Positions 5,897-29,781 of a stretch of DNA of 54,914 bases are shown here, piece by piece. Within the stretch, counting starts at the first letter, position 1. Every line of letters begins with the position of its first letter. Made by a program: the position numbers and the translations under genes. The notes under the pieces are model-generated. The model was not told the origin of the DNA. It searched no databases and saw nothing but the letters and a program-made list of their open reading frames with translations. This DNA is from Candidatus Falkowbacteria bacterium (GTDB lineage: Bacteria > Patescibacteriota > Patescibacteriia > Patescibacteriales > UBA12465), in contig JBAXPN010000005.1 in assembly GCA_037132255.1 (NCBI GenBank), forward strand, positions 1 to 54,914. The letters run 5' to 3'.

Positions 5897-5919
5897 ATAT
5901 TTTTAATTAATTTGCGTAT

Positions 5920-7812: not shown

Positions 7813-7817
7813 AGAAT

Positions 7818-8498: not shown

Positions 8499-8504
8499 AG
8501 TATA

Positions 8505-8924
8505 TTATTCACCTTTATATCTTCCCTTCGTATCGACTACGAGGGCGAGTTCTGCTAAGCGTGACTTTTTATAATATTCTTTCGGCTCCGGCCTAACTTC
8601 CTTCGGAACAAAAATTGTTTTATCGACTTCTTCAATAACAGTTAAGCGGTTATTCCAAACCCTTGTCCCTGGACGCCGTATTGTCTGCGTAATATTTACA
8701 ATAAAATAATGGAAGGGGCGGCCGTTTACTTTAACAAATGAAAAAAGTGAGGCAATCCCTAAAACAAAAACCGTAATTGTTACAAATAAGGAAAAATCAA
8801 ATAACTTATAAGAAATACCGATAATAACGGCGGCTGCTAGTAGAATTAAAAATTGGCGAGTAGTTATCGGCCCGATAATTTTACTCTCGACATCAATAAA
8901 TTGCGGAACGGTAAACTGTTGCAT
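8505..8924 (-). CDS. PrgI-family (VirB3-like) small membrane protein
   Basis: 139 aa. N-terminus MQQFTVPQFIDVESKIIGPITTRQFLILL followed by two TM helices, matching the PrgI-family pattern. It sits upstream of VirB4, as in Gram-positive T4SS loci. Confidence 0.7.
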   Translation of the reverse strand: MQQFTVPQFIDVESKIIGPITTRQFLILLAAAVIIGISYKLFDFSLFVTITVFVLGIASLFSFVKVNGRPFHYFIVNITQTIRRPGTRVWNNRLTVIEEVDKTIFVPKEVRPEPKEYYKKSRLAELALVVDTKGRYKGE

Positions 8925-8930
8925 AGTATA

Positions 8931-10373
8931 TTAAAAGACTAATTGACTGTTCATGGCAAGAATTGCTTCAATTTCTTCCAGGCTTAAATAATTCTGACTA
9001 TCTTTTTGGACTGATAAGGCAAAATCCTTAATCTTCATGCCTTTAACCATCGACTCTTGAACCATTTTTAAATACAAACGATTAACCGGACTTTGGCGCC
9101 AGGCACGAACACCTGCGACCATTTTATCATAGCCGTCTGCTTCTAACAATTTAATTTTAGAGAATATTTTAGCTGTAATTTCGGTCGGTGTTTTACCAAG
9201 TCGTCGGAAATTTAATAAATCTAAAAACTGTAATTCTTCAAGCGGACCCATGACTTTAGGCATCGGCTTAATATCATGCATTACTTGTTTCGAGATTGAA
9301 GGGGCAAATGTCGGACGCGAGGCGACGACTGGTTTTTGCGCTGGCTGTGCGACGCGGGCAATTGGTGGCACCGGCTTTAAGGTTTGACCGAAAAAGCCAG
9401 TCTTTACCGGTTTTTCAATTTGCTGAGCTTTATTTACGACTGGAGCAATAGGCGTAACTGGCTTAATAGGAGCCGGGGGTACAATAGAAGGAGCCACTGG
9501 TGCAACAGCAATAGGAGGAACAATTATTGGCGGAATTGCAATTGGAGTAATACCAAGATCAGGTACTTTAATTTTTGGCGTAATTTTATCCAAATCAATT
9601 TTCTCTGCCTTTCCCGGTAATGGTAAATCCAATTCCTTCTCTGGAGTAGCGAGCTCGTGGCTTGTATCTAATTTTATTGGAGCGACAACTTTTGAGGTTA
9701 ACACTTCAGGTTTTTTTATTTGTCCGCTAGCAATCGCCTGTTTCAAATTATATTCTGAGCTTGCGCCATCAGCGGAAGCAATAATTTTATCTAATCTACT
9801 TTGTGGAGCTGGCAATTTACTAACTGAAGCTAAATTTACTTCTAAACTCTTAAAAGTTTTTTGCTCACATACTTTAAAAACTCTATCTATCTCAAGAGAA
9901 TTTAGATTTAGTCCGCCGAAATTTACTGCCTTGCTAAAAGCATCACGTGCGGCTATTTTACTTCTTATTCCCTTTAAATAGGTCGAGAGAACTCCCTTAA
10001 AGCGATTAACTAAATCAGCACTTGGAAGAACTAGGCCCGCTTCAGAAATAATTAAATTTATATCGGCATCTAAGTCGAGCCCTTTAAGATGTTTTTCAAG
10101 ACCTAAGTATTCAGAAACGTTTATAAATACTTTCGCAGTTAATTCACGCGCTAAATTTTCCGCATCAGACTGACTCAAATTTAAATCACTGGTAAAATAT
10201 GCCGGTAGGTTTTGAACTGCCGCGCTCTTAATCATTACCTTCATGACAGCCATAGCTAAATCAACTTGATATTTCTTTTCAAGTTCGGCGAGAGCTGCCA
10301 TTGCCGAAGGCGACGATACTTTATCGCGTAATTCCTTAGGTAAATTATTAAATTGTTGCAAATAATCAAACAT
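8931..10373 (-). CDS. Hypothetical protein with a central Pro-rich hydrophobic linker
   Basis: 480 aa. N-terminal domain shared with the upstream 347-aa ORF. Low-complexity PIAIPPIIVPPIAVAPVAPSIVPPAPIKPVTPIAPV in the centre. No family recognised. Confidence 0.6.
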   Translation of the reverse strand: MFDYLQQFNNLPKELRDKVSSPSAMAALAELEKKYQVDLAMAVMKVMIKSAAVQNLPAYFTSDLNLSQSDAENLARELTAKVFINVSEYLGLEKHLKGLDLDADINLIISEAGLVLPSADLVNRFKGVLSTYLKGIRSKIAARDAFSKAVNFGGLNLNSLEIDRVFKVCEQKTFKSLEVNLASVSKLPAPQSRLDKIIASADGASSEYNLKQAIASGQIKKPEVLTSKVVAPIKLDTSHELATPEKELDLPLPGKAEKIDLDKITPKIKVPDLGITPIAIPPIIVPPIAVAPVAPSIVPPAPIKPVTPIAPVVNKAQQIEKPVKTGFFGQTLKPVPPIARVAQPAQKPVVASRPTFAPSISKQVMHDIKPMPKVMGPLEELQFLDLLNFRRLGKTPTEITAKIFSKIKLLEADGYDKMVAGVRAWRQSPVNRLYLKMVQESMVKGMKIKDFALSVQKDSQNYLSLEEIEAILAMNSQLVF

Positions 10374-10388
10374 CGAGGAACTTACTAT

Positions 10389-11432
10389 TTATTTTTTCTT
10401 TTTTAAACGCTCAATTTCTTGAACGACTGCTTTATATTCAAGCGTGCCTGGCATATAAAGAGCTAGTGCTTGTTGGAGCTCAGCCAGAGATGTTTCTCCT
10501 TTTTTCAAATCACTATTTTTTATTTCCTTATCTTGCATTTTGCTTGGATTACTTATCTTGGCATTAATAGTTTTAGCCGGTTTTGCTTTGGCTACCACTT
10601 TTTTTGTTTCTTGATTATCATCATCTAGAACATCCCTGACTTCGCGAGTGCCATCGACAGATTTATCAGTGGGAATTATCTGCCAGTCAGTAATGGCCAA
10701 ATTTTCCATACTTTCTGGGAAGAAAGTTAAATTACGATATAACTTTAAAACTCTACGTACTAAATTTTTTTCATCCGGACTTAATTTTTTTGTGTTCTGT
10801 GAAGTGCTTAAATACTGAGCTAATACCAGTTCATCAAATATCTCACTTCCGTTTTCTTTGATAAAGTCCTTCAACCAATTGGAAATTGTAGGCGATACTT
10901 CGCGATTATCTAAACGCAAATGTTCTCTCGTCAACACCTCATCATTATTATATAAAATATTAATAACTTTTTCTTCAAGATCATCATAAGTATTTAATGC
11001 TTGAAAAATATTAATATTTAAGCCCGCCACTACCTCCGGGGAAGCTTTAAGACTCTCAACGATTCGTCTTGAAAATATATTAATAATATCTTCTCTACTA
11101 GCGACTCCGATCGAGTCATCGTCTTCGGGAATAATTTTCTCAATTGCGGGATCGATAATTTTATTTACTATATCTTCTTTCACCTTTTGTGCAGTTTCTG
11201 GAGAAATTTTAAATTTAATAATTAAATATTCCGAAATATCCTCTTCTTCAATCTCGCCAATAGCCAAAAGAATTACCAAAAAACTTAACTTAATTTTATA
11301 TTGGCCTTCAAGTTCTTTAATAATGGCATATGTCTCCACGCCCCCGTACGCCTCCTTTTCATCCTCAGGCAGAGTTCTAAATATTGCTAAACATTCAGCA
11401 AAATAATTCATAAATTTAATTATAGTCTTCAA
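10389..11432 (-). CDS. Hypothetical acidic protein, paralogous N-terminal domain to 8931-10373
   Basis: 347 aa. FRTLPEDEKEAYGGVETYAIIKELEGQYKIKL aligns by eye with FNNLPKELRDKVSSPSAMAALAELEKKYQVDL of the next gene. Confidence 0.6.
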   Translation of the reverse strand: MKTIIKFMNYFAECLAIFRTLPEDEKEAYGGVETYAIIKELEGQYKIKLSFLVILLAIGEIEEEDISEYLIIKFKISPETAQKVKEDIVNKIIDPAIEKIIPEDDDSIGVASREDIINIFSRRIVESLKASPEVVAGLNINIFQALNTYDDLEEKVINILYNNDEVLTREHLRLDNREVSPTISNWLKDFIKENGSEIFDELVLAQYLSTSQNTKKLSPDEKNLVRRVLKLYRNLTFFPESMENLAITDWQIIPTDKSVDGTREVRDVLDDDNQETKKVVAKAKPAKTINAKISNPSKMQDKEIKNSDLKKGETSLAELQQALALYMPGTLEYKAVVQEIERLKKKK

Positions 11433-11434: not shown

Positions 11435-14400
11435 TTAACTATTCAACTCATCGTTAATGGCGCCTGCCTCAACGATTGTTGTTGGCGCTTGGCCGCCGGT
11501 CTTCTTACTAAGAGCTTGCATAGTTGAAACATTTTTTCGCATATTTAAGTTCAATTGCTTCAATGGAAATAGCAGGTTATTATTAGCCGCACTATTCGCA
11601 CTCGATCCGGACATTGGCTTTATCGAAGAGGCCATTTTCTTAACTTTTTCTGACAAAGTGTCTAAAGATTTTTGGAAAACTTCCGTATTTAATGCTGGTA
11701 TTTCTTCTATGTTACCGACTGCTTGCGATTCAGTTTCTTTATTTCCTTTTTCTAAATTTGCCACGCGTTCCGCTCTACTCTTTCCTTCAGCACCAACACG
11801 TGTTTTTATTTCATTATCAACTTTCGATAAAATATCATCATTACTCATTCCCTGATCCTTCCAGCTCTTGGCCTGTTTAGCTATTTCAGTTGCATGGCGG
11901 CCACCTGTCGCTGCGTTGCGACCATAGAGTTTATTTGACATCAATTTCTTCGACATTCCTTCCGTTAAATCTTCATCATCAACTCCGCCCGCATGAATCT
12001 CTTCATGATATACGGAAGCCATTTTTTCCTGTCGTCCATAATTAGCACTAGCTGTATTTATAAGATTCAAATTCTTTAATTCGTCTGGATTGCTTAAGCG
12101 TGTTTGTGCTTTATCTAAACTTGCATTTCTAGTATTAAAATCTGACTCGCTAATATCACCGCTAGATTTAGCATTAAGTAATTCTGCTTTTTCCGCGGCA
12201 ATTTGAGCGGAAAGAGCTTGAGCGATTGGGCCTATGTTTGTGCCCGTCGCAATACTCGCCTCAGCTTCCGAATCCAAACCAGCTTCTTGCATTTTATTAA
12301 AATCAACGCCAACTACATTCTTACCACTAATGTTATCTTTATTTTTTGCAAAAGAATCAACTTCAAACGCTCCGCTTCCTTTTTCACCAATTGCTCCTGT
12401 CTTACGATTAGCAATAACTTTATTATCTAAGCTATCAACGGTACCGATCGTCGATTTAGCATTTAAAGAAGCGATGAGGCCAGAGAGATTACTCGTATCA
12501 CCCTTGCCCTTTTTAAAGGCCGCAATACCGCGAGCCAAGGATTCTAATTTCTCCATCTCTTTTGGATTTGCAGTATCTATAGTGCTCGCCCAGGCAGCCA
12601 TATTGCTTACAGCCTGAGCCGATTCTGGATTATCTTTATTAGTTAATTGCTCAAAAAATTTCTTTTGCTGAGCAGTTTGACCGCTCTTATTATAAAAGGT
12701 TGCCCCTGTAAAACCAGATGGGCCTTCCATCGCTGTTGGGTCGGCCGATAAAACGCCAATTTGCTTACGAGCATTTTTTATATCCAAACTTCCCTTAGTA
12801 GCCGCCTTTTGCGTAAGCTGAGAACTTGCTTCTTGAAAACCGCCAGCTGTTTCAGATACTGACTTGCTCCAACCAGCCGCATTCCGAGCTTTTTTTGCAA
12901 GTTTTTGATATTTTTTAGCTCTTTTTATATCTGCAGGATCATTACTTGCATCGGCCTGCGCTTGCAACGTATCCGCTTTACTTTGAATAGCATCTGCTTG
13001 CCTTAATCTTCGCTCTTGGGTGGCCTTGCTGCTGGCGGCTAGTTTCCCTGCTCCGACGCTAGCACCTCCACCTAACGCAAACCCGGCTATTCCACCAATA
13101 GCTGTTCCAACTGGCCCTGCGAAACTTCCGACTGCCGCACCGACTCCTCCGCCATGCATTGCAGTAGAAAGCGCTTTTCCTGTATCTGTTTTTAAAAATT
13201 CGCTTGTCTTATCCATGGTTTTTTCTCCCATCCCAATTTTTTCCAAAAACTTCTGACGATTATCCTGCTTTTTCTTTTTATTTTTCATGATCATGTCAGT
13301 TCTCCAAGCTGATCCTATATTACCTACTCCGAGCATCGCATCGCCAACTCTTGTGTTTCCCCCTGCTCTTTTATTAATTGCCCCTCCGATACCCTTGCTC
13401 GCCCAAGAAGCTACCCCTAAGCTCTGATTTCTAGCTGAACGACCAACCGCGCTTCCGACATTAGCTGCTCCCTGCTTAATTTTCTTACCACCGAAGGCTA
13501 AGGCACCAGTTGCTAAGCCACCAGCAAAAGCTGCTCCTTTAGTAATCTTAGACATTCCCTTGCCAGCGATGCCACCAGCAGCGCCGCCAATTTCTTGAGA
13601 TATTTTAAGACCACCGACAAGCATGCCGATAGCGATAATGAATTTAATAAATACGCCCGGTGTTGATGCCTCTGAACCGGCGACTGGCGTTCCGTCCATA
13701 CTTACTCCAACTTCCCCAGCGACTCCCGCCGTATCCGTCGGTCCAGTTGTTGGAAAGTCTGTATTAATATTCTGTGTTTGCAAAGAAACAAAAGATAACC
13801 AAATAAAAAAAGCTAAAACTGGACCAACGATTAAATTTTTTGAAAACTCGGTCCACCATTGGCTAGAGTATTTTTGTCCACCGGGAAAAGCCGACATTAA
13901 ATATGCAGCCGGAGACAAGACAACATAAATCCAAATCATAACGATGCGCATAACAAGCATCGCAAGCATTGTAATAATAACGACAAGAGCAATTAAAATA
14001 TAAATAAGTCCTAAAACATAAGCGCCAACAATTTCCCAGGCGCTAACATGCCCGCTATCGTTAGCAAGGGTTAAAATTTCTGTTATCCCTAAATTGGTAA
14101 TTAAATTACCGGCGGCCATGTCCTTGAAGGCGTTTACAAAAGTCAGCATGACTATCTGCGCAAAATCAATTAGGAGCCCACAAATGGTTTTAGAAAAATT
14201 TATTAAAATGGCCATGAGAATTAATTTCGGTAACCATTTTTTATAACTATAATTTTCAACTCGTAAAATTGTTGCGAAAGCAATAATAAGCAATATTAAA
14301 ACGAAGAACATATTGCAAACATCGCGAACAACCGACCAACCATTTGAAATCGCTGGCGCATGAATAAAATTACTATATTGCGCAACGGCGACAAGCGCCT

Positions 14401-14572
14401 GCATGACTAAAACTAAAATTAAACCGAGCGCACCGATAATCAAACTAATTAGACCGCCAAAAATATCCGTCGCCCAATTAGCATGGGCTGGCATGGCTAG
14501 AAAAAAAATACCAATTCCTAAAAATCCAGTCAGGAGAACTACGAATCTTTTTTTCTTGTTTTTTATAGTCAT
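11435..14572 (-). CDS. Polytopic VirB6/TrbL/TcpH-like membrane protein with an approximately 700-aa hydrophilic C-terminal extension
   Basis: The track ORF starts at 14605 and overlaps the upstream gene. ATG 14572 (MTIKNKKKRF.., AGGAAAA about 13 nt upstream) gives a signal-like N-terminus ending AHA. About 7 hydrophobic helices lie in the first 330 aa or so, followed by Gly/Ala-rich glycine-zipper segments and a Lys/Ala/Ser-rich tail. The family call comes from architecture and context. Confidence 0.55.
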   Translation of the reverse strand: MTIKNKKKRFVVLLTGFLGIGIFFLAMPAHANWATDIFGGLISLIIGALGLILVLVMQALVAVAQYSNFIHAPAISNGWSVVRDVCNMFFVLILLIIAFATILRVENYSYKKWLPKLILMAILINFSKTICGLLIDFAQIVMLTFVNAFKDMAAGNLITNLGITEILTLANDSGHVSAWEIVGAYVLGLIYILIALVVIITMLAMLVMRIVMIWIYVVLSPAAYLMSAFPGGQKYSSQWWTEFSKNLIVGPVLAFFIWLSFVSLQTQNINTDFPTTGPTDTAGVAGEVGVSMDGTPVAGSEASTPGVFIKFIIAIGMLVGGLKISQEIGGAAGGIAGKGMSKITKGAAFAGGLATGALAFGGKKIKQGAANVGSAVGRSARNQSLGVASWASKGIGGAINKRAGGNTRVGDAMLGVGNIGSAWRTDMIMKNKKKKQDNRQKFLEKIGMGEKTMDKTSEFLKTDTGKALSTAMHGGGVGAAVGSFAGPVGTAIGGIAGFALGGGASVGAGKLAASSKATQERRLRQADAIQSKADTLQAQADASNDPADIKRAKKYQKLAKKARNAAGWSKSVSETAGGFQEASSQLTQKAATKGSLDIKNARKQIGVLSADPTAMEGPSGFTGATFYNKSGQTAQQKKFFEQLTNKDNPESAQAVSNMAAWASTIDTANPKEMEKLESLARGIAAFKKGKGDTSNLSGLIASLNAKSTIGTVDSLDNKVIANRKTGAIGEKGSGAFEVDSFAKNKDNISGKNVVGVDFNKMQEAGLDSEAEASIATGTNIGPIAQALSAQIAAEKAELLNAKSSGDISESDFNTRNASLDKAQTRLSNPDELKNLNLINTASANYGRQEKMASVYHEEIHAGGVDDEDLTEGMSKKLMSNKLYGRNAATGGRHATEIAKQAKSWKDQGMSNDDILSKVDNEIKTRVGAEGKSRAERVANLEKGNKETESQAVGNIEEIPALNTEVFQKSLDTLSEKVKKMASSIKPMSGSSANSAANNNLLFPLKQLNLNMRKNVSTMQALSKKTGGQAPTTIVEAGAINDELNS

Positions 14573-14580
14573 AAATATAA

Positions 14581-14811
14581 TTATTTTCCTGCGAACGAGC
14601 TCCAAATACTGCTAAGAAGAGCGCCTAAGGCTTCGAACGGATTAGATACCACTTTAACTATCATTGCGATGATTGCGATTTGCGCTAATAGTAAAAGCAT
14701 GCACCCCAGATTTAAACAACAACAGCCCATGCTTTCAATTATGTTTGCTCCCTTTTTTACAACTGCGACTGCGCCTTCTTCAGGACTTGAATTTTCAATA
14801 TTTTCAACCAT
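14581..14811 (-). CDS. Small membrane protein (77 aa) with a Cys cluster (GCCCLNLGC) entering its TM helix
   Basis: The track ORF (to 14868) overlaps the upstream gene by 50 nt. Internal ATG 14811 removes the overlap. Hydrophobic core MLLLLAQIAIIAMIVKVV. Confidence 0.5.
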   Translation of the reverse strand: MVENIENSSPEEGAVAVVKKGANIIESMGCCCLNLGCMLLLLAQIAIIAMIVKVVSNPFEALGALLSSIWSSFAGK

Positions 14812-14818: not shown

Positions 14819-15262
14819 TTATTTACCAGAACCAGGCGCTCCTGGTTTATCCGGTATCCATTCTTCACCTAATTTACAAAATAATTTATCACCAAGCACT
14901 AAATTTAAAAAAACATGAATATCAATCCAAATTAAAGTTAGACCAAAAGTTTCAATTAAATTTTCCCAGGCGGCTTTAAGCAAAGCCGAAGTTCCCTTTC
15001 GGGCTGGCGCAAGCGCCGCTGTTATCATTTTATTTGTTTTTGCTTTTAAACCTTGTTTTCTTTTTTCGGTCATCTGATCGGCTCGAAAATCGCCGCTTGA
15101 TTCTGATGCTCCTCCGCCTTTTTGAGCCATTCTTAAATTTCCTGCCCGATCAGCTGCGTCTTCATCATCATTATAACCAGAATCTGACGCATTACTCTCT
15201 GAGTCATCCGCCTTTTTTTCCTGGGTTTCGCTACGATTAATCAATTGGTCATCGAGCGCCAT
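14819..15262 (-). CDS. Hypothetical protein, first gene of the T4SS-like operon (acidic, disordered-looking N-half, hydrophobic C-terminal segment)
   Basis: 147 aa. ATG with AGGAAAA about 13 nt upstream and a promoter just upstream. C-terminal FGLTLIWIDIHVFLNLVLG. Confidence 0.55.
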   Translation of the reverse strand: MALDDQLINRSETQEKKADDSESNASDSGYNDDEDAADRAGNLRMAQKGGGASESSGDFRADQMTEKRKQGLKAKTNKMITAALAPARKGTSALLKAAWENLIETFGLTLIWIDIHVFLNLVLGDKLFCKLGEEWIPDKPGAPGSGK

Positions 15263-15956: not shown

Positions 15957-18900
15957 TTAATAGCCGCCTTCTTTGTCCCAATTATCATGTATTTTAATAG
16001 TGATTGTATTATTCCCCGTATTCTTATAATAGTGATAAAAAACATGTGGACTATCTTGGTTTGGGCGACTATCCTGTCCAGTTATCAACTGATCGGATTC
16101 GTTTGCTCCCCATTTTATATAGATATCCTTAAGCGGCTGCTGCTCGGCATCAATAATCGTATTGAATTCTAGACTATAAACACCTTTCTTTGGAATAAAG
16201 AAAGAGCTGGTCGTAGCAATTACCTGATTATTATATTTAACTACAACACGAGAACCAATTTTTGGATTAATCGCACAAAAATTATTTACGATTCCGGCTG
16301 GCGTTGTCGCATAAGTATCTACTGGACGTGACGGTGTGGCGCAGGTATTAGGGTTCCTATCAATACCAGTACCTCCTGGCACATAGGCGCCATTAGTGAA
16401 GGAGTAAGTATTATATGATTTTAGGAATAATTGACTTAAAATATTTTCGAAGTCAGGCCCGACATTAGTATTAACATCAGTCCTCCCCAAATAATTATTC
16501 CATAATGGGACACATGTTCCATACCCACCATCAGCGCAAGTTTTACGAGCAACATAATCAGTGCTCGTGGCGGTACCAAATAAACAATAGACGCTTGGAT
16601 CAAGACTACAGTAACCAATTTTACTACACCCATTGCCGATCTCCGATGGTGTATTATAATTTGAGCATCCGTAAGGACGTCCGGCTAAAATATTCTCACT
16701 ATTTTTAACTGAGTACTGATTTCTAAACTTAATTGCCTCGCTATTATAAAGACTAAAATCATCAGGCCAAAGAGCGGCACCGAACGGAACGTCCTGGCGA
16801 TTACGCCCGTATGCCGCTATCGAGTGAGTTGTTCTTATGCCTGGACCATAATAACTAATACCGGCTTGCGCATAATCAATAAAGAAAGGTGGGGTGCTAG
16901 TGGTCCAAATGGAATTTATACTTGTTCTTGCCGCCCAGGCTTTATTATCACCATTATTATCAACCGCCTGAACAAAGCGATTGCAGGTTAATCGAAATAT
17001 TTTATCTTCATCGTTACCGGATATTAACTTTAAGCCGTCCTCGTCGGCTGGCGCCTGGCCATAATCAAGAACACGCACCGCCGGATCGGCATTAGTTTCC
17101 TCATTAAGGATTGTACAATCATTTGAGCCACACGTATGCTGGCTATTATTTTTTGCGTAGCCATTATATCTATACCAGCCATCACTATTTGTCACAACAT
17201 CTCTAGATGGCTCATCCGCTCCGCCACTTGTCCGCGTTTGCTCAGATATCAAGGCACCGTTACTACCAGAATTTAACGTAAATGTCCCTCTATTTATTTC
17301 TCCTTCCATAACTGTAACCGCTAGACCAGGTCTTCTAGGAATGCACCATGTGTTACCATTACAATGATCATGACCTCCCACCTGATGATTATACTCATAA
17401 TAAAACATGACATAATCAGTAGCGCAATTTGTATTTGACTGTGATTCATTGAATCCATTATCTGTGCTGCTATTTGAACAAGAACCCAAAGTATCATCAG
17501 CACCGATTAAAATGGTTTTTCTCTTCTCCACCAAATCAAAATTACCATTAAGTTCAGTACAATAATTTAATGGGAACTTACCTTGATAACCTGATGAATT
17601 ACGAGTTGTCATCGAGGATGAAATTTCATCAACCGGATACCACATTAAGCAGACATCTTTATTATTTGGATCATGTTCGAGACAATATCCCTCCCAACCA
17701 TCTTTCAAAACATTATTATTTTTATTGACGCAAGTTAAACTATCGTTCGTTGGATACAAACGGCATTCACGCGCGATATACTGCTTTGTGCTGCTGCTAT
17801 TAGCGTTTACTTCAAGCACCGGCTCGATATTAATGTCATCGAAATATACCTGTCTGTCGCTCGTAGTATCAGTCGCCCCTAAATATATTTTGACTGAAGT
17901 CGCAACCCCTGGGTTAAAGGAGAATATTTGACGTGTCCAACCATTATTAGAGTAGAAACTTTGTGTCGCATTCGGAATAGCTATTTCCGATTTTCCCGCT
18001 CCCGGCATCTTCATTATAAGCACCGCTCCCATACCGGAATTTTTTGTATTAACCAAGAAATTAATAAAATATTGTTTATTCGGAATAACAGTCGTCCAAC
18101 TATTGCTTGATTGAGGTGAAACTAGATATGCGCCTGGAACACGAACATAGCTTGCACCATGCGCCGGATAATCATTGGGTGCTTTTTCTGGCTCACGAAC
18201 CAATAAATCAGTAATAATATTCTTACTAAAGACGCAGGCGCTACCATTATCGGCACGTCTACAACTTATTGCCGGGACACTATCTTCAAAATCATAATGG
18301 GCATCGGTATTTATCCCAACCTCACTCATATTACTCAAATGGTATTTATTCAAGAGATAATAGCCAGTCGCATTTTTATTCTGCCCGCTCGCATTATAAG
18401 TCATAGTGCCAGTCGGAGCGTCTTCGAAACTAATACACTCATTCTTATCGTTTAAGCGTGTGCATTCGCCAACGGCAAAGCAGGTTCTTTCTTGGGTTAC
18501 TGGATCTTGAGTATAAGTTAAACAATCAAGCCATTTTGAGCAAACCCGATTTGGGCTAACCTTAATTAGTTGATTAGCATTACAAGAACCAGTTGAACTT
18601 GCGACGCATAAGACAGGCGCTTGACCGCTCAAACTCGTCTGAGCATTATATTTATTACTTAAATCAGCTAATCCAGAACTACCACTAATGCTACGCTCAT
18701 TAAATAAAACGCAGCCGTTATCTAAATTAACCACGCCATTACAACTATTCTTATCAATATTTTCTTTTAATTGATAACCAACAATTGCAGTTTTAAGTTC
18801 TATGGTTTTGTTAGCTCCCTCCGTTGAACCGCCACCGCTAACAATAACGCTCGAATTATTCATTGAGAAGAACATTCGGCTTCGGTTTGTGTTGCCCGGA

Positions 18901-21900
18901 ATACTGATCACAGTCGTGCTCGTAGCAAGCGTATTATTATTTAATAATTCTTTGACGTTACCAACAAATGTTAGAGTAGTTGTCGCCGCGTTCGTATTAT
19001 TACGAGTAGAAAAAACATAAACTTGGTTGGCAGAAATAGTTACTGTTTGCGCCCCAGCTGTAGACCAACCTTCTGCTCCATTTGAACCAATCTCCGAACT
19101 TGGATTAAAGATGATATTAGGCGCAAATTGACTAACCGGATCAATATACTCCGTACAACCGGAAGCCGTCGCATCGCAAAGACCAGCTTGCAAATCTGGC
19201 GTTGGGATTTGATTACCAGCACCACCTGGCCCAAAGGTCTTTAAATAAGAAGTTGAACAAAGATAATCGTTTGTATCAATAATACAAGGTTTATTCGAAC
19301 AATCATTTACCGAGCTACAAATTTTACCAGTTTTTTCCGTACCTTCAATTTTGCTATTACTATCAGCATCACATCTCTTAACTGGAATCTTATACCAAGC
19401 TTTTCCGGTCACAGTTAAATCTTGGCTTGCTCGGTACTGACACGTTTCATTCCCCGGATCTCTAAAGTAACTATAAGTAGCGTCCGACTCCTTCCATTCC
19501 TCGCAGCCGACTTCGGCCTGGCCACATAAAGTATTATCGTATAAATTTGGATTATTTTTCTTATAAACATCCGACCAGGCATTTGTTCCGTTAACGCTCT
19601 GCCCTAATAAGCTACAACCTAAATCCGCCGAATTACATTGTTTATTAGCGTCGTAGACGGCGTATATCGCCTCATCACGCTCAACTTTGACACAATCAGT
19701 CTCGCCGCTATCACAGACACCATTCGAATTAGTATCGTTCCAAAGACCACTACCGTACGGGGTATAATTTTGTGTAGCGAGCATCTGTTCACAACCAACC
19801 GCTGAGCCAGAGCAAAGTTTTGAGAATTTGCGCAGATTATGTTTTAGATTTCCTCGGTCAGTATATTGTGAACAACCTAAATTATATTCTTCACCCTGGA
19901 ATTTATCGGTCATGTCGTAATAGCAAATATCAGGAATTTGGCTCGTTCCCCCAATCAAATAATAACGGTCAGTTATTTCTGTCAAAACAACATCGTCAAA
20001 ATAGAAATCATGATTAGCACTAATTACTAAATGCTCATTAGCGGTAATAGCATGGTCAAGATTATCTAAATTTGTCTGATAAATATTCCATTCGCCGCCA
20101 TCCTTAATAACAAGCGTGCTAGTAGCAAATTCTGCTTTTTGAGGATTGCTAGTATCACCATTATAGAAATATATTTGCGGATTTGTCGCGACATCAGCCT
20201 TAGCAATAAAGCGAAGCGTATAGGATTTTCCTTCGCTTACTATATTGCTCACATTCAATTGCGCAACTACATTAGCGGAGGCAAAGACTTGAGTTATGAG
20301 TGGCTTCTTGGAAACTGGGGCTGACTGAGTATCATCGGCAATAGCGCCGCAGCTATTAGCCACGTCCTTATACAGCATGGAGTGCCCATTTTTATTATTA
20401 GCAATAGTGCTTAACTGCAAACCGCCGACACAATTCGAGGTCCAGCTCTGAGCGCCACTTTCGTAGTCATAATAGGACAACATCTTAACGTTGTTTCCGC
20501 TATTTCCATTATATTCACGACAACCATTTTCACTGGCCGTGCAAGTTTTTCCTTCACCTGGTATTGCCTTATAAACGCAAGCACTTAATTGCGTATCCCA
20601 AGCGCCACCGTTTAGACAAACATTACAAACGCTAGCCGCCACATCCCAATTTTTAGTTGGCGGATTAGTAGGGTTCGCTAGACATTGCGCCATTGTTAAA
20701 GTCTTATCAACATTTTTCTGGCTCATGCGGTAAGCATGGCAATTATCTGAACAAGTAATTGTGCGTGAAATTAAATGATAAGAAATTTGGCCGGCAGAAT
20801 TATAAAACTCACGACAATCGGGATTATATAATGGGTCGCCTAAACTCTTGCTATAGATAGTCGCATTACATAGACTTGAATCAACTGATGTTACCATCGG
20901 TTCGAATTGCGCAGTTCTTTGTAGGCTATATGATCTTAATTGATAACCACTTTCAACTCCCTCCCAGCTATAAAAGCTCCCACATGAAGTCGTGCTTGGA
21001 GTAATACATTGTTTCAATGAAGTATAATATTCTTTATTTTCTCCTCCTTGATTTACTTGATCCAAATTTGTGAATTCACTACAACCGGCTGCTTCGGCGC
21101 TGCAGGCAGTAGCTGTTGTCGGAATAATATTTTCCGACTGCGGCGAATTAAAATGATCTTCTTTTGAAATATAAATGTCATAACCAAGGCATTGGTTCGG
21201 ACAGTAATCAGTGCTCGTTACTTGAGCGGAAACAGCCAAGCCGTTACTAACCCCGGTATATAATTCGCAACCGACTTCTTCACGATTACACTTACGAGCA
21301 TATTTAGCACAAGCTGCCGGAGCATCGCTCTTCAAACGATAATCCTTCGTCGCTCCGCCGACATTAACATAACAAGCGGCTTCTAAATAAGGCGGTATAA
21401 TTTTTTCATAAACCCTATACGCTCCGTAAATATTATAACCAGTATCAAAATTACTAACTTCAAATTTTATATTCTTAACATAAACTCGGACGTTCGCAGT
21501 AGCCGTATCAGCATTAATGCCGAAGCTTGCCTGGCTATAAACGCCAGATGCAATACGTGTTACTGTCAGATGCTGCCAACTATTTAAAGTCGCAGTCGAA
21601 CTCACAAAGCCATCAGCAGTATCACCCTGGTAAATACTTACAGCATGACCCTCGGCTAAATAGACGTCAGCGCTAACCGTGTATGATTGTCCGGAAATAA
21701 GTTGAAAGTTTTCCGGTAGAAGAGAGTTATTGGGGTCAGAAAATGTCCCGACAACCGCATAGGCCGCATTTCCCGCAGTGCGAGTCGCGACTAATTTCAA
21801 AGCTTTACCGGCCGATCCGCCCGGCTCCTGAGTGGCGTCAACGATTGTCGCAGCGCGTGTATTATTTATAGTATTGGCTGATGACAAATAGGTCCATTCG

Positions 21901-24188
21901 TTTAATTTCGCGGTTCCTGTTGCCGAATTACCGATAACATCGCTGGCAAAATCTGTATTCATTACCAAATTAGAACCCCAGGTCGGCTTAACTCTTAATA
22001 ATTCTGTACATCCCTCGTCCTTACCATTACAGGCCCCCAAATTTTTATTTAAATAGATACTCTTATTTGTATCCCAGCTTACAGTTCCAGTTGATGTGGA
22101 ATAATTACCATTCGTCGAATATTGGCGGCAACCAGCACTTTCCGGATTACAGCCGGAATAATTTAAAGTATTTTCAAGATAAGAAACCTTCTTCCCGGAG
22201 ACAGGATTAGTAAAACTTTGGCAAGTATTAAAAATTGGTTCGCAACTGTCACCAGAAAAATTCCAAGTTCTTTTTTCTTCATTACAATAACCATAGACGT
22301 CGCAACTGCCATCATCCTTTTCTTTAATACAAGTTTGTTCGTCAGCGCAATAGTCTTCCGCTCTGGTTACGGTTAAAGCACTAGGCGTATATGGATTCCC
22401 GCTTATTCCGGGGATACTGGCCAAGATTGAGGTATCAAGAATTTGTGCGCTTACCCCCTGTTTGCGGCAATAATTAAGCGAAGCTTTCAAAACCCAATTA
22501 GGATCTACTAAACCTCGGCACCAGGCCTGGTTATGGGTATCAAAATCGGCACTAAATTGATTATAGCTATCGCTGGCGCTAAAACAAGAAACCAAATCGC
22601 TAACCGTCGGCATTTTATTAACGGTCTTTGCGTTTGAGCTAGCTTTATTAACCGCATCTTCCCAACCGATTGGTAAAATTCGGTATTTTCTTAAAATAGA
22701 AATATTACGGAGCGAATAAGTATTATCGACCGTATCTTTAGAAATTTTCCAGTCACCATGAATATAGCCGTCCTTAATTGCTTCAGCGACCGTCTTCTTT
22801 TCTGAGATTGCTTGCGCAAATTTATTATCGATCACGCAATTAGTCGGACCAGGATTTTTTGGGTCAGAGCAAATTGTTAGTTGCGATAAAATATCATAGT
22901 CTGCTTCAACGCCAAAATTTGGTTTTATAATTGAAGAGCTTACCTCTTTAACGGTCCCTTCGCCGTAAGAAACGGTTGGGTCACTTCCCGGATTTTGCAC
23001 ATCCGGAGTTCCCGCTGACTTCTGGCCTATTTTTGATAATAAGTCATTAAATTTAGTAATCGCGTATTGATTTAAAAAGACATTAGCGGCGTCAACAACA
23101 ATATCGCCCGTAACCTTTCCTAGACCCGCTCCCATTAAATTTCCCGCTAAGTCACGTTTTGCTTCTGCATCCCCAGGAACGCCAATCAATTCTTTTGCCG
23201 CATTTGTTTTGCCAAGCCATCCCTTGTTAGCTGCTAAGTTAAGTCGACTATTTTGATCAGCGATTGTTTGTTTAGCGAGCATGCCCTCATTCGCAGACAT
23301 ATAGATTCCTAAATCGTTTGCTGTCGGATTAAAAAAGCCGGCGAAGGTTTGTAAAAAATCAGTGTTCTTCATGTCCTCATATCTCTGGACTTCGTCTCCC
23401 CAGTTTTCAATCATTTTGGTGGCCGTACAGTTTGAGTCGGTCGCTCTTTGATATTGGACAAGGCCTAAACCGATTTTTACTTTCGCCTGCAAAGAAGATG
23501 GTTGGCAAACATTAAGAGTCGGTACACCGGCCGTGCCTATTTTTGTGCTCCCAGAGGAACCACTAGTTAATTTATCAACATTAGCGTCGCAAGCCGTGGC
23601 GTCCGTTTTACATTTTTGCGAACATGCACTAAAATCTGTCGTCATTTGGTCAGTGAGCTTTGTTAAATCCTCCATTGTTGACCAACATACCTTATCACAT
23701 TCCTGATATGTATTTTGACATTCGGTCCTCTTTACTCCGTTGGCCTCTGATGTTGCTAAATTATTGGCAAAAGTTTCAATAAACTGCCCAGCCGCTTCAT
23801 CGCCGATTTGACCCAAATATGCCCCCCAATCTTGAGTTATAAATAATGGCTTCTGTCCTTTATCTCCCGACCCTAAGTAGGTAGCCGTATCATAGGCAAT
23901 TTTATTCAAGGCTGTTCTGGCTACTGACTGAAAAGTTGCTGAACCAGATTTTTGCCATAAATATTTAAGGGCCGTCGCAACCTTGGTCATAATACTGCCC
24001 TTAACTTGAAGAGCGGCCCCAAGAGTATCCACGGTTAACAACTGCGCATTGGCCTTACGGACAGGTGTAGATAAGAAAGAAAAGAGCATAATAAAAACCA
24101 GCAAAAAAATAGCGATTTTTCTACTTGTTCCCTTGGCACTCTTCTTTGATAAATTTAAAGAAGATTTCATTTTATTATTTATATCCAA
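15957..24188 (-). CDS. Giant (about 2743 aa) secreted, cysteine-rich multi-domain surface protein
   Basis: Uninterrupted 8.2-kb ORF. The track start is TTG 24188, abutting the upstream stop, and ATG 24170 (MKSSLNL..) is an alternative. N-terminal signal/anchor IAIFLLVFIMLFSFLSTPVRKANA. About 90 Cys by manual count. Repeated C-x6-C loop motif, four jelly-roll/CBM-like modules ending in ..YFDDVVLTEI / ..YFDDINIEPV / ..VKNIKFEV, and a PKD-like C-terminus (HVFYHYYKNTGNNTITIKIHDNWDKEG). Confidence 0.8.
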   Translation of the reverse strand: MDINNKMKSSLNLSKKSAKGTSRKIAIFLLVFIMLFSFLSTPVRKANAQLLTVDTLGAALQVKGSIMTKVATALKYLWQKSGSATFQSVARTALNKIAYDTATYLGSGDKGQKPLFITQDWGAYLGQIGDEAAGQFIETFANNLATSEANGVKRTECQNTYQECDKVCWSTMEDLTKLTDQMTTDFSACSQKCKTDATACDANVDKLTSGSSGSTKIGTAGVPTLNVCQPSSLQAKVKIGLGLVQYQRATDSNCTATKMIENWGDEVQRYEDMKNTDFLQTFAGFFNPTANDLGIYMSANEGMLAKQTIADQNSRLNLAANKGWLGKTNAAKELIGVPGDAEAKRDLAGNLMGAGLGKVTGDIVVDAANVFLNQYAITKFNDLLSKIGQKSAGTPDVQNPGSDPTVSYGEGTVKEVSSSIIKPNFGVEADYDILSQLTICSDPKNPGPTNCVIDNKFAQAISEKKTVAEAIKDGYIHGDWKISKDTVDNTYSLRNISILRKYRILPIGWEDAVNKASSNAKTVNKMPTVSDLVSCFSASDSYNQFSADFDTHNQAWCRGLVDPNWVLKASLNYCRKQGVSAQILDTSILASIPGISGNPYTPSALTVTRAEDYCADEQTCIKEKDDGSCDVYGYCNEEKRTWNFSGDSCEPIFNTCQSFTNPVSGKKVSYLENTLNYSGCNPESAGCRQYSTNGNYSTSTGTVSWDTNKSIYLNKNLGACNGKDEGCTELLRVKPTWGSNLVMNTDFASDVIGNSATGTAKLNEWTYLSSANTINNTRAATIVDATQEPGGSAGKALKLVATRTAGNAAYAVVGTFSDPNNSLLPENFQLISGQSYTVSADVYLAEGHAVSIYQGDTADGFVSSTATLNSWQHLTVTRIASGVYSQASFGINADTATANVRVYVKNIKFEVSNFDTGYNIYGAYRVYEKIIPPYLEAACYVNVGGATKDYRLKSDAPAACAKYARKCNREEVGCELYTGVSNGLAVSAQVTSTDYCPNQCLGYDIYISKEDHFNSPQSENIIPTTATACSAEAAGCSEFTNLDQVNQGGENKEYYTSLKQCITPSTTSCGSFYSWEGVESGYQLRSYSLQRTAQFEPMVTSVDSSLCNATIYSKSLGDPLYNPDCREFYNSAGQISYHLISRTITCSDNCHAYRMSQKNVDKTLTMAQCLANPTNPPTKNWDVAASVCNVCLNGGAWDTQLSACVYKAIPGEGKTCTASENGCREYNGNSGNNVKMLSYYDYESGAQSWTSNCVGGLQLSTIANNKNGHSMLYKDVANSCGAIADDTQSAPVSKKPLITQVFASANVVAQLNVSNIVSEGKSYTLRFIAKADVATNPQIYFYNGDTSNPQKAEFATSTLVIKDGGEWNIYQTNLDNLDHAITANEHLVISANHDFYFDDVVLTEITDRYYLIGGTSQIPDICYYDMTDKFQGEEYNLGCSQYTDRGNLKHNLRKFSKLCSGSAVGCEQMLATQNYTPYGSGLWNDTNSNGVCDSGETDCVKVERDEAIYAVYDANKQCNSADLGCSLLGQSVNGTNAWSDVYKKNNPNLYDNTLCGQAEVGCEEWKESDATYSYFRDPGNETCQYRASQDLTVTGKAWYKIPVKRCDADSNSKIEGTEKTGKICSSVNDCSNKPCIIDTNDYLCSTSYLKTFGPGGAGNQIPTPDLQAGLCDATASGCTEYIDPVSQFAPNIIFNPSSEIGSNGAEGWSTAGAQTVTISANQVYVFSTRNNTNAATTTLTFVGNVKELLNNNTLATSTTVISIPGNTNRSRMFFSMNNSSVIVSGGGSTEGANKTIELKTAIVGYQLKENIDKNSCNGVVNLDNGCVLFNERSISGSSGLADLSNKYNAQTSLSGQAPVLCVASSTGSCNANQLIKVSPNRVCSKWLDCLTYTQDPVTQERTCFAVGECTRLNDKNECISFEDAPTGTMTYNASGQNKNATGYYLLNKYHLSNMSEVGINTDAHYDFEDSVPAISCRRADNGSACVFSKNIITDLLVREPEKAPNDYPAHGASYVRVPGAYLVSPQSSNSWTTVIPNKQYFINFLVNTKNSGMGAVLIMKMPGAGKSEIAIPNATQSFYSNNGWTRQIFSFNPGVATSVKIYLGATDTTSDRQVYFDDINIEPVLEVNANSSSTKQYIARECRLYPTNDSLTCVNKNNNVLKDGWEGYCLEHDPNNKDVCLMWYPVDEISSSMTTRNSSGYQGKFPLNYCTELNGNFDLVEKRKTILIGADDTLGSCSNSSTDNGFNESQSNTNCATDYVMFYYEYNHQVGGHDHCNGNTWCIPRRPGLAVTVMEGEINRGTFTLNSGSNGALISEQTRTSGGADEPSRDVVTNSDGWYRYNGYAKNNSQHTCGSNDCTILNEETNADPAVRVLDYGQAPADEDGLKLISGNDEDKIFRLTCNRFVQAVDNNGDNKAWAARTSINSIWTTSTPPFFIDYAQAGISYYGPGIRTTHSIAAYGRNRQDVPFGAALWPDDFSLYNSEAIKFRNQYSVKNSENILAGRPYGCSNYNTPSEIGNGCSKIGYCSLDPSVYCLFGTATSTDYVARKTCADGGYGTCVPLWNNYLGRTDVNTNVGPDFENILSQLFLKSYNTYSFTNGAYVPGGTGIDRNPNTCATPSRPVDTYATTPAGIVNNFCAINPKIGSRVVVKYNNQVIATTSSFFIPKKGVYSLEFNTIIDAEQQPLKDIYIKWGANESDQLITGQDSRPNQDSPHVFYHYYKNTGNNTITIKIHDNWDKEGGY

Positions 24189-24839
24189 TTATTGATTAAT
24201 TGTATTACTAGTTGTTGTCGCTGCTTCCTGACTATTAATCGATTCCTCGTATATTTTTAATAAATCAGCATCACTAATTTTATCTAGAGTCGCCTGTTCA
24301 ACGCCGCTCTTTAAAAGTTCTTCTCTAATCATGGTGGGAGTAACGCCTATTTCGCTTGCGCTCGGTGTGCTTGTGCCTAGTGAGTCTTGCGTTAAGGCTC
24401 CAAAATCGAGAATATCAGTAGAGCTCGCATTTGGATTTGTTATTCCGTTCGATGCTGTTCCAGTCGTGCCGCAATCTTTACCGCTTGCACAGTTCGGATC
24501 AGTTCCCTGTTCAATTTCCTGCTTATCATTTATCCCGTCACTATCCGAATCTTCGAGATATGGAGAGGTATGATAAACATTAACCTCGTCGCTATCAGAA
24601 ATACCATCACCGTCCGAATCTTTAAGAGAAGGGTCAGTGCTTGTTGCTTGATTTTTTTTTGTCAATCCGCTCGCGAGATTAAAAGGGCTATTTAATTGCG
24701 CACTAAGTTGGACAACCCAAAGAACAATAATCATAATCGCGAAGACAGCCAAAAAAACCACCGCCATTTTTTGCTGGCGTGGTAAATTTTTTATTGTCTG
24801 AGGATTGAGATTGCGATTCTCTTGGCTCTCAGTCGGCAT
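24189..24839 (-). CDS. Membrane-anchored protein with thrombospondin type-3-like Ca-binding repeats
   Basis: 216 aa. TM MAVVFLAVFAIMIIVLWVV. Repeats DSDGDGISDSDE and DSDSDGINDKQEIEQGTDP. Confidence 0.7.
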   Translation of the reverse strand: MPTESQENRNLNPQTIKNLPRQQKMAVVFLAVFAIMIIVLWVVQLSAQLNSPFNLASGLTKKNQATSTDPSLKDSDGDGISDSDEVNVYHTSPYLEDSDSDGINDKQEIEQGTDPNCASGKDCGTTGTASNGITNPNASSTDILDFGALTQDSLGTSTPSASEIGVTPTMIREELLKSGVEQATLDKISDADLLKIYEESINSQEAATTTSNTINQ

Positions 24840-29030: not shown

Positions 29031-29780
29031 ATGAGCTTAGAAGATAGAGTTAAATTCGCCGAAATGAAAGCGCGCCACGAAAAAAAACTTCGCCCTTGGT
29101 ATAAAAAATGGTGGGGTGTTTTTATTATATTAATTATTGGTCTGATACTAATCGCTTTAGTTAGTTCTGGCTTCTATATTTATAATGAAATTAAAAGAAT
29201 AAATGAGGAAGACGCGCAGAATTATATCAAAGACCAACACCAGGCATATTTAGATTTAATTAGTGGTCCAGGCGGTTATACAATCGGGACACTAACACCA
29301 AAAATAACTGTTGTTGAATTCACTGACTTTGCCTGCCCGTACTGTAAGCAATCTGCTCCAGAAATTCGAAAACTAATGGAAGAATATAAAGATACGGTAA
29401 AATTAGTTATTCGCGATTATCCGATTCATGATAATTCGATTGATCTGGCCATTGCCGCGCGCTGTGCCGGTGAACAAGGAAAATACTGGGAAGCTTACGA
29501 TTCACTCTTCACGAATCAAGATAATCTAATTGGCACCTCTACCATCCAAAATGATATATTATCTTGGGGCGAGTTTCTGAAACTTGATTCCGCTCGATTC
29601 AAAACTTGTATAACTGACAAACGCTATATCGATCTAGTAAAACGTGACTACGATGATGGTAATAAATTAAAAATTCAAGGTACGCCGACTTGGTTCGTTA
29701 ATAATTATCCAATTACCGGATACTATTCGGCCGAAAGATTTAAAGAATTATTCGATGGAATACTCCAACAAATTAAATAA
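29031..29780 (+). CDS. Membrane-anchored DsbA-like thiol:disulfide oxidoreductase
   Basis: 249 aa. N-terminal TM WGVFIILIIGLILIALVSSGFYIY. Thioredoxin-fold CxxC FTDFACPYCKQ. Conserved ..GTPTWFVN. Confidence 0.8.
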   Translation: MSLEDRVKFAEMKARHEKKLRPWYKKWWGVFIILIIGLILIALVSSGFYIYNEIKRINEEDAQNYIKDQHQAYLDLISGPGGYTIGTLTPKITVVEFTDFACPYCKQSAPEIRKLMEEYKDTVKLVIRDYPIHDNSIDLAIAARCAGEQGKYWEAYDSLFTNQDNLIGTSTIQNDILSWGEFLKLDSARFKTCITDKRYIDLVKRDYDDGNKLKIQGTPTWFVNNYPITGYYSAERFKELFDGILQQIK

Positions 29781-29781
29781 T

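Follow-up and report, generated by a model that had tools for sequence, protein, structure and literature searches.

A giant, cysteine-rich and putatively glycan-binding exported protein encoded beside type IV secretion-like genes in Patescibacteria

The window analysed here comprises positions 1 to 54,914 of contig JBAXPN010000005.1 from a Candidatus Falkowbacteria bacterium (assembly GCA_037132255.1), and its subject is a giant gene at 15957..24170 on the minus strand, which encodes a very large cysteine-rich protein amongst genes of a type IV secretion system (T4SS)-like apparatus. Coordinates refer to the minus strand of the window unless marked otherwise. The stretch is chromosomal, with rpoB, rpoC, LepA, RecJ, MurJ, LeuRS, KsgA, RecG and RadA all present. 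Along the minus strand the exonuclease, LeuRS and KsgA genes are followed by the gene for a 216-residue protein with TSP3 repeats, the giant gene, p146, p147 and p1056, and the order then continues through p347, p480, the VirB3-like PrgI, p226, VirB4 and p208 to RadA. A T4SS locus flanked by recG and radA has been described for class ABY1 (PMC12102498), and the present locus, with both of these genes, would fit that class.

The open reading frame (ORF) containing the giant gene extends over 15957..24188 and is free of stop codons throughout, as judged from both the ORF list and the translation, giving 2,743 residues when counted from a TTG. This TTG, at 24188, comes right after the upstream gene's stop codon with no gap, whereas an ATG at 24170 lies 18 nucleotides past that stop. 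Since the homologues open with MK... and the identical database copy has 2,737 residues, the ATG at 24170 is probably the true start, with the stop codon at 15957-15959. A sequence-only reading of the window, made before this analysis, had described a single uninterrupted 8.2-kb ORF encoding 2,743 residues with a signal or anchor sequence; the uninterrupted frame is borne out by the stop-free translation and by the co-linear full-length homologues described below, while the length holds for the ORF as listed and not for the protein. The N-terminus has a basic n-region and a hydrophobic core of 16 residues ending in A-N-A before Q, and the segment at 24045..24170 (MKSSLNLSKKSAKGTSRKIAIFLLVFIMLFSFLSTPVRKANA, followed by Q) reads as a Sec-type signal peptide, for which the family consensus is KK..FLL.F...FS....P...A.AQ. 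The retention of A-x-A-Q across the family points to a cleavable Sec signal, so that of the two options offered it is the signal and not the anchor that stands. Inspection of the C-terminus (...IKIHDNWDKEGGY) gave neither an LPXTG sortase signal nor a C-terminal transmembrane helix. The GC content of the gene (0.40-0.42) lies within the local range of 0.36-0.43 and, together with the conserved chromosomal synteny near rpoBC, LeuRS and KsgA, excludes a recent horizontal acquisition.

A word-indexed search returned 325 relatives of the giant protein. The best 120 of these are nearly all full length (2,600-2,950 residues; 42-70% identity), and every source name they carry is 'hypothetical protein', from either 'Patescibacteria group bacterium' or 'Candidatus Falkowbacteria'. 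Most of the listed homologues cover 98-100% of the query and are co-linear with it from end to end. When residues 41-1240 were compared by phmmer with 1.84 billion cluster representatives (50% clustering), 1,356 representatives matched, 1,088 of them at E<=1e-30, and almost all are 2,400-3,000 residues long; the distant ones carry just the labels 'hypothetical protein' and 'Patescibacteria group bacterium'. The full-length homologues and the more than 1,000 representatives exclude a frameshift or a one-off expansion, and an assembly chimera is likewise excluded by the co-linearity; there was no sign of the frameshifts or chimerism against which the earlier reading had warned. Nor was whole-length homology found to a characterised adhesin family, the homologues all being hypothetical. 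The giant protein appears to belong to a large, so far unnamed Patescibacteria family, and the alignments indicate strong purifying selection along the entire chain, the gene behaving as a single-copy, syntenic core gene under strong constraint. It is not a fast-evolving adhesin, the full-length conservation being unlike the pattern of rapid diversification. We found no paper in open-access text that describes the family or such a protein in a Patescibacteria T4SS locus.

The protein contains 94 cysteines (3.4%), close to the earlier manual count of about 90. Against 2,000 composition-preserving shuffles of the protein, C-x6-C occurs 14 times (3.2 +/- 1.7 expected), C-x5-G-C nine times (0.25 +/- 0.49 expected, maximum 3) and the full pattern C-x5-G-C-x-[EQL]-[FYWLM] nine times (0.0045 expected), and the motif is therefore far commoner than composition predicts. 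All nine peptides quoted in the sequence-only reading, and its looser variant CDSGETDCVKV, were re-read at exact coordinates. The motif is also a feature of the family, as C-x5-G-C occurs 7-10 times per protein among the best 120 homologues; the loop cysteines are 99% conserved (10 sites in 60 sequences) and the family-wide consensus is C-[NSD]-[AS]-x-[EAD]-[VA]-G-C-x-[EQ]-[YFLW]. Placed by the motif scan and the family alignment, loops 1 to 5 are CNPESAGCRQY (22119..22151), CNGKDEGCTEL (21999..22031), CNREEVGCELY (21258..21290), CSAEAAGCSEF (21072..21104) and CTASENGCREY (20511..20543). The next five lie together in one cysteine-rich segment (19146..19814): CSGSAVGCEQM (loop 6, 19782-19814), the variant CDSGETDCVKV (loop 7, 19683-19715), CNSADLGCSLL (loop 8, 19605-19637), CGQAEVGCEEW (loop 9, 19494-19526) and CDATASGCTEY (loop 10, 19146-19178). 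It had been proposed that these loops form a repeated disulfide-stapled mini-domain. In a profile-profile comparison of 14 segments with hhalign, the ten loop sites share no similarity beyond about 11-15 residues, and AlphaFold was not confident at most of the loops; a separable mini-domain was dropped, and the element is better regarded as a loop-plus-strand staple.

The behaviour of the cysteines across the family is consistent with disulfide formation. When 60 sequences are aligned, conservation reaches 90% or more at 86 of the 94, most of them invariant, and those that vary are gained and lost in pairs, as would be expected of disulfides. Perfect co-occurrence (phi 1.0) is seen for the pairs 157/200, 164/193, 1169/1188 and 1492/1499, nearly perfect co-occurrence for 2237/2276, and phi values of 0.8 and 0.85 for 168/189 and 2616/2638. 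The pair 1492/1499 is itself a C-x6-C loop, and its joint loss in three of the 60 homologues is direct comparative evidence that this loop is closed. The cysteine count is even in 49 of the 60 (binomial 4e-7, treating the homologues as independent of shared ancestry). Near the N-terminus the cysteines form a mirror-image ladder, C157-x6-C164-x3-C168 ... C189-x3-C193-x6-C200 (23589..23720), recognised from cysteine co-occurrence and with predicted helices on both sides (DSSP of the AlphaFold model), and residues 157-200 look like a helical hairpin held by three disulfides. We infer that the majority of the 94 cysteines are joined in disulfides, of which there could be as many as 47, and that ten of these would close the 8-residue C-x6-C loops; alternatively, cysteine pairs may coordinate metal.

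Two fragments of 1,200 residues, 41-1240 and 1544-2743, were modelled by AlphaFold with 50-sequence alignments, giving a mean predicted local distance difference test score (pLDDT) of 63 for the first and of 72 for the second, for which the predicted template-modelling score (pTM) is 0.59. The N-terminal region of the mature protein (22869..24044; identity 0.43) is predicted with low confidence to form long helices and contains the conserved block ...LRTALNKIAYDTA.Y.GSG..GQKPLF..... It is followed by a conserved alpha/beta domain, residues 441-575 (22464..22868; pLDDT ~75-85, identity 0.62), with no sequence match in Pfam or the PDB. The first jelly roll, residues 736-925 (21414..21983; pLDDT ~83-95), is immediately preceded by loop 2, has no cysteine and ends ..VYVKNIKFEV; in Foldseek it matches the carbohydrate-binding modules (CBMs) CBM4-2, CBM16 and CBM61 (E ~1e-6, target template-modelling (TM) score 0.65). 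Beyond it, residues 1031-1225 (20514..21098; pLDDT ~80-91, identity 0.61) form a conserved beta domain with 13 cysteines. The second jelly roll, residues 1245-1425 (19914..20456), ends ..HDFYFDDVVLTEI and lies outside the modelled fragments in the region of the Pfam CBM_4_9 match (PF02018; residues 1305-1372). This match, the sole one to Pfam in the giant protein, scores 18.7 bits against a gathering threshold of 25.9 (E 0.0023), while the same family is matched by 16 of 18 family members at E<=0.01 (best 2.2e-9).

The third and fourth jelly rolls are both covered by the C-terminal model. The third, residues 1691-1815 (18744..19118), is seen as AlphaFold strands at 170-257 of the fragment with CBM-type Foldseek matches; it also lacks cysteine and is variable (identity 0.36). 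The fourth, residues 1991-2135 (17784..18218; pLDDT ~83-93, zero cysteines), ends ..RQVYFDDINIEPV; its Foldseek matches are to a porphyran-binding CBM as well as to CBM16 and CBM22, with target TM scores of 0.66-0.74, though its CBM matches in the PDB sequence search were marginal. Taken together, the three modelled jelly rolls match PDB structures with E values of 1e-6 to 1e-5 and target TM scores of 0.64-0.74. Each of the four jelly rolls is preceded by a cysteine loop, C-x6-C for the first three and C-x8-C for the fourth: the CTEL... loop stands just before jelly roll 1, CREY... (loop 5) ~20 residues before jelly roll 2, CTEY... ~12 residues before jelly roll 3 and the C-x8-C just before jelly roll 4. 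The models and, for the second, the family-wide CBM_4_9 match confirm at the level of predicted fold the four diverged CBM-type modules of the sequence-only reading, here CBM4/16/22-like jelly rolls alternating with cysteine-rich segments. Its statement that this is not a simple tandem-repeat adhesin also stands, as the 14 segments share just the ~15-20-residue motif and a weak mutual match between jelly rolls 2 and 4.

The remainder of the chain comprises the most variable module, residues 2206-2345 (17154..17573), which is beta-rich with indels (identity 0.23, gaps 0.18), and a C-terminal beta-sandwich (15960..16253; pLDDT ~87-93). For the last ~100 residues the family consensus, ..IDWGDGS..H.FYHYY..I.I.I.DNWG, resembles the PKD signature, and the model there is an eight-stranded beta module with pLDDT ~88, CBM matches having dominated the Foldseek comparison of the fragment that holds it. 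No Pfam PKD match was obtained at E<=1 for the giant protein or at E<=0.01 in 18 family members, and when the last 104 residues were searched against the PDB sequences the only matches, to cerebellin, were spurious, so that the PKD label given to the C-terminus in the earlier reading stays unproven. Searches with the whole protein were similarly negative: no NCBIfam family, including the Myxococcus cysteine-rich repeat type, matched at E<=1, and a profile of 18 family members found nothing below E 0.1 in the PDB sequences. The top Foldseek match of the C-terminal half, the cysteine-rich eukaryotic protein Elapor1, was treated as a non-specific multi-domain match because of its TM score of 0.12-0.14 and rmsd of ~30 A.

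The jelly rolls contain 0, 3, 0 and 0 cysteines and have mean identities of 0.36-0.50, as against 4-17 cysteines in each of the segments between them and mean identities there of 0.55-0.65. Lower conservation of the jelly rolls than of the cysteine-rich segments is the pattern expected of ligand-facing modules on a fixed scaffold. The same constraint can be read differently. The protein might be part of the secretion conduit's own structure, a rigid stalk or cap braced by disulfides and crossing the wall and S-layer, with its jelly rolls bound to the cell's own wall polymers. In favour of this are the very high full-length constraint on a surface protein of 2,700 residues (42-70% identity), the pTM of 0.59, which suggests that the C-terminal 1,200 residues pack into one compact body and are not strung out like beads, and the long low-confidence N-terminal helices, which are typical of oligomeric coiled coils; monoderm T4SSs moreover have no known wall-spanning structure (PMC12857230). 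The jelly rolls and residues 2206-2345, on the other hand, vary far more than the scaffold, which fits external ligands better than self, and there was no evidence of oligomerisation or of a channel. We consider such a conduit role improbable.

In fold the four modules are the same beta-jelly-roll as the CBM4/CBM9 (PF02018), CBM16, CBM22 and CBM61 families, from which they differ in being embedded in ~2,000 residues of cysteine-rich scaffold rather than fused to a glycoside hydrolase, and in the disulfide-type loop ahead of each. As CBM4/9/16/22 modules are classically appended to glycoside hydrolases, and as no fold could be assigned to two conserved domains that are predicted well, it was also considered that the protein is a secreted enzyme or toxin, directed by its CBM-like modules to polysaccharide so as to attack or remodel a host wall, with the catalytic domain hidden in, for example, residues 441-575 or the irregular cysteine-rich residues 2346-2645. 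No catalytic family appeared in Pfam, NCBIfam, the PDB sequence profiles or the top Foldseek matches, and more than 2,000 residues of conserved scaffold far exceed what a targeting device needs; this explanation seems very improbable. Among viral proteins (BFVD) the best structural matches are phage host-specificity, tail-fibre and CBM-cenC proteins, all local, with whole-chain TM scores of 0.1-0.2. These best matches are multi-module arrays of jelly rolls and beta-sandwiches for cell-surface glycans, but the giant gene does not lie in a phage setting, its product lacks domains for trimerisation or baseplate attachment, and its cysteine scaffold is absent from the listed phage proteins. The resemblance would seem to be one of kind, as glycan-recognition arrays, and not of ancestry. 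The tandem-repeat adhesins Bap, LapA and RTX differ in their near-identical repeats, of which the giant protein has none (hhalign of the 14 segments, maximum probability 41%, best match 20 residues), and in using a C-terminal type I secretion signal instead of an N-terminal Sec signal.

The immediate neighbours of the giant gene include several predicted membrane proteins. Upstream, the TSP3-repeat protein (24189..24839; TSP3_bac E 7.5e-10) is a 216-residue single-pass membrane protein (transmembrane residues 21-51) with calcium-binding repeats, and in two relatives (L001 and L002) the end of its gene overlaps the giant start. Downstream, p147 (14819..15262) has an acidic N-terminus and one C-terminal transmembrane helix by topology prediction. 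Between the giant gene and p147, p146 (15422-15862) is a small protein with a lipoprotein-like leader (MKKLKFFSLWVILVTLAFVSVNC); a homologue was present in one of 86 related loci (L030) and it looks like a lineage-specific insertion. The largest neighbour, p1056 (11435..14605), has seven predicted transmembrane helices and a hydrophilic tail of ~700 residues. Extended VirB6 proteins consist of a polytopic N-terminal part and a large hydrophilic domain (PMC12857230), a layout that p1056 shares along with its VirB3/VirB4 locus, and it is a candidate extended VirB6/TrbL-like subunit. As to homology, there is a weak precomputed TrbL_3 match on two p1056 homologues, and searches of the PDB by phmmer and with a 19-member profile gave nothing relevant. 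Separately, the hydrophilic tail of p1056 contains an HExxH motif (HEEIH, near residue 856 counted from the ATG) that 17 of 19 homologues retain, as part of the conserved block TV.HE..H..G..DEDL, which could be a zincin-like site in a VirB6-like protein.

The T4SS-like unit proper (5270..11432; p347, p480, PrgI, p226, VirB4 and p208) was assigned from Pfam and homologue annotation. PrgI, VirB3-like, lies at 8505-8924 (E 3.8e-7); p226 at 7818-8498 is TraC-like through PF26593 matches on its homologues; and VirB4 at 5920-7812 matches P-loop_TraG (E 2.7e-28) and carries the NCBI name 'VirB4-like, CD1110 family'. The last gene, p208 (5270-5896), encodes one N-terminal transmembrane helix and a globular C-terminal part of ~130 residues, in layout that expected of a VirB8/PrgL-like subunit; such subunits were found mainly in class ABY1 by a published survey. 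Across the related loci the median identity of VirB4 is 88%, compared with 70% for LeuRS and 81% for p226, which is unusually strong constraint for a secretion ATPase. Five genes upstream of the giant gene, and on the plus strand (29031..29780), lies a gene for a membrane-anchored DsbA/MdbA-like thiol-disulfide oxidoreductase with a thioredoxin fold and a CPYC site, syntenic in 42 loci. An MdbA-like oxidoreductase family is enriched in candidate phyla radiation (CPR) bacteria (bioRxiv 10.1101/335083), and it would seem likely that this enzyme oxidises the giant protein. Further upstream, 8-10 kb from the giant gene, are two plus-strand genes for cysteine-rich proteins with a C-terminal T4SS_pilin domain (PF18895), at 31733-32839 (23 cysteines) and 33731-34861 (14 cysteines). 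They are interleaved with genes for the gamma, ferredoxin, alpha and beta components of a 2-oxoacid:ferredoxin oxidoreductase (29755-34861, plus strand), an arrangement that recurs in L001 and L002.

Gene order was compared by tblastn across 86 related loci, drawn mainly from a metagenome scan with the family alignment. In all 53 loci with enough sequence the giant gene is followed by a p1056 homologue, and in 50 of the 53 by one of p147; the TSP3-like gene lies upstream in 51 of 52. PrgI or VirB4 follows within ~10 kb in 18 of 45 loci, at 8-10 kb in this window, and the compact order is retained by a relative at 37% identity. In many relatives (for example L001, L002, L087, L088 and L089) a metabolic insert of ~10-20 kb falls between the p347 and p480 homologues and splits the T4SS-associated genes into two co-directional units. 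The inserted block carries PfkB, AdoHcy hydrolase, SAM synthetase, a CTP-transferase-like gene and PEP-utilizer/PPDK pieces, and in the two split relatives that were measured (L026 and L061) the unit PrgI-TraC-like-VirB4-p208-RadA lies behind such a block, ~18.5 and ~29.5 kb downstream on the same strand; L002 and L088 have the same order. The position upstream of a T4SS-like operon and the co-localisation of homologues with VirB4, both raised in the sequence-only reading, are thus upheld, the VirB4 unit lying downstream on the same strand wherever it could be located. T4SS neighbourhoods have been taken to extend to 20 coding sequences from virB4 (PMC12102498), and the giant gene lies within this distance on the same strand, with eight ORFs of at least 100 residues between it and VirB4. 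Its linkage to the T4SS genes appears from these comparisons to be family-wide.

Several signals predicted in the DNA accompany this block. An 11-of-12 sigma-70-like promoter match at 28997-29025 upstream of the exonuclease gene and a terminator-like hairpin at 3838-3854 after radA, each a consensus match only, bracket the whole 25-kb co-directional block containing the giant and T4SS genes. In the LeuRS-KsgA intergenic space an AT-rich palindrome of 12 pairs (TAAAAATATCCCCTTTAAGGGGTATTTTTA; 25747-25776) was scored as terminator-like on the minus strand, with a GC-rich core at 25755-25767 called on both strands.

The gene order bears directly on whether the protein has anything to do with the T4SS. 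A general envelope protein, such as a surface lectin or adhesin or an organiser of the wall or S-layer, might owe its proximity to the T4SS genes to conserved gene order. The giant gene is no less syntenic with LeuRS, KsgA and ExoIII than with the T4SS genes, the VirB4 unit is not within 10 kb of it in 27 of 45 loci, the sequence searches linked the protein to no T4SS part, and large cysteine-rich extracellular proteins with a proposed role in attachment occur in other CPR lineages with no stated T4SS link (PMC4736985). The insert, however, shows that the locus can be broken, and yet it falls between p347 and p480 and never between the giant gene, p147 and p1056; the whole set between the T4SS pilin genes and VirB4 is co-directional, and p1056 has the topology of an extended VirB6 with the weak TrbL_3 match on two homologues. 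An envelope protein independent of the T4SS is, on this evidence, rather unlikely.

Two known systems are of particular relevance here. PrgB of pCF10, an adhesin of the MPF-FATA class, is likewise a large extracellular protein encoded with a monoderm-type T4SS, and the context here is comparable, with PrgI/VirB3 and a VirB4 of CD1110/TraC type, so that the giant protein could by analogy supply the cell-contact function that PrgB-type adhesins do. It differs in having neither LPXTG nor adhesin-domain homology (Pfam, NCBIfam and PDB sequence), and in being about twice as large, cysteine-rich, chromosomal and vertically inherited. The T4SSs of Patescibacteria are MPF-FATA-like and usually without a relaxase, and the survey that described them found no PrgB-type adhesin (PMC12102498). 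The large cysteine-rich extracellular proteins of Peribacteria (Anantharaman et al. 2016; PMC4736985) also come from CPR bacteria and have a signal peptide, more than 1,000 residues, many cysteines and a proposed role in attachment; the genome encoding them has one disulfide-forming enzyme (PMC4736985). They are set apart by their description as multi-copy (a 14-gene cluster), strain-variable and ~7% cysteine, compared with a single-copy, strongly conserved protein of 3.4% cysteine fixed in a T4SS-flanked locus.

The reading we favour, and to which we give an even chance, is that the giant protein is exported through Sec, folds oxidatively and acts outside the cell as a glycan-binding partner of the T4SS-like apparatus in Patescibacteria. 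After Sec export the signal peptide would be cleaved between A-N-A and Q and the chain oxidised, probably by the membrane-anchored CPYC DsbA/MdbA-like enzyme. Most cysteines would then pair, closing the ten C-x6-C loops and stapling the N-terminal helical hairpin with three disulfides, to give a rigid conserved cysteine-rich scaffold displaying four jelly rolls of CBM4/9 type, which vary more and have almost no cysteine, followed by the hypervariable beta module and the C-terminal beta-sandwich. The scaffold may dock on the TSP3-repeat protein, p147 and the seven-helix VirB6-like p1056 and thereby be held at the surface, with the jelly rolls binding polysaccharide in the envelope of a host or partner cell; ligand specificity would reside in the variable jelly rolls and the 2206-2345 module. 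The giant protein would in this way be the outward-facing contact module of the machine. The structural part of this account is well supported; a role in the T4SS draws on the conserved gene order and on the lack of another adhesin candidate in surveys (PMC12102498). Epibiotic growth of one Saccharibacterium depends on its T4SS as an essential system (PMC10633639).

A number of observations weigh against this reading. The giant gene is equally syntenic with LeuRS, KsgA (52 of 52 loci) and the exonuclease, and its adjacency to the T4SS genes may for that reason partly reflect frozen gene order and not shared function. Pfam, NCBIfam and the PDB sequences gave no homology between any part of the protein and a T4SS component or adhesin already known, and the VirB6/TrbL identity of p1056 was not reproduced by hmmscan at E<=10 with the whole protein, its transmembrane region or its relatives, which makes it a lead and not a result. 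The suggestion of glycan binding comes from the jelly-roll fold alone. CBM-like jelly rolls elsewhere also serve as protein-binding or purely structural modules. Given the lack of LPXTG and of a C-terminal transmembrane helix, the protein could leave the cell instead of staying on its surface. Model confidence is low at the N-terminus and at most of the loops: pLDDT is mostly <60 over the first ~400 mature residues, where helices are predicted at 55-106, 121-173, 180-209 and elsewhere, and <50 at seven of the nine modelled C-x6-C loops, with the other two borderline.

Patescibacteria account for a large share of bacterial diversity, and their cultured members live attached to other microbes; they are generally considered anaerobic and fermentative. 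The T4SS-like machine is needed for growth on the host in the only species that is genetically tractable. For these organisms the target and mode of contact of the T4SS-like machine is a question that the giant protein may address, being a conserved, very large, lectin-like extracellular candidate encoded inside the T4SS locus. It could be localised as an antigen, its four modules are separable and suited to assays of glycan binding, and its density could be sought in tomograms. The jelly rolls are already known in kind from CBM4/9/16/22, while the whole protein appears to match no curated family in Pfam, NCBIfam or the PDB. The family is also a rich natural collection of extracellular proteins with many disulfides, in which the C-x6-C loop is a simple, countable element. 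If the protein were independent of the T4SS, the family, abundant and unnamed, with over 1,000 clusters, would still merit a definition. A broader proposal, which we regard as rather unlikely as it stands, is that it is a lineage-wide extracellular T4SS subunit, a disulfide-braced lectin array seated on a VirB6-like protein that docks the machine onto host cell-wall glycans and replaces both the adhesins of Gram-positive systems and the outer-membrane core of Gram-negative ones. Were such docking to be true, the variable jelly rolls would help to set the host range.

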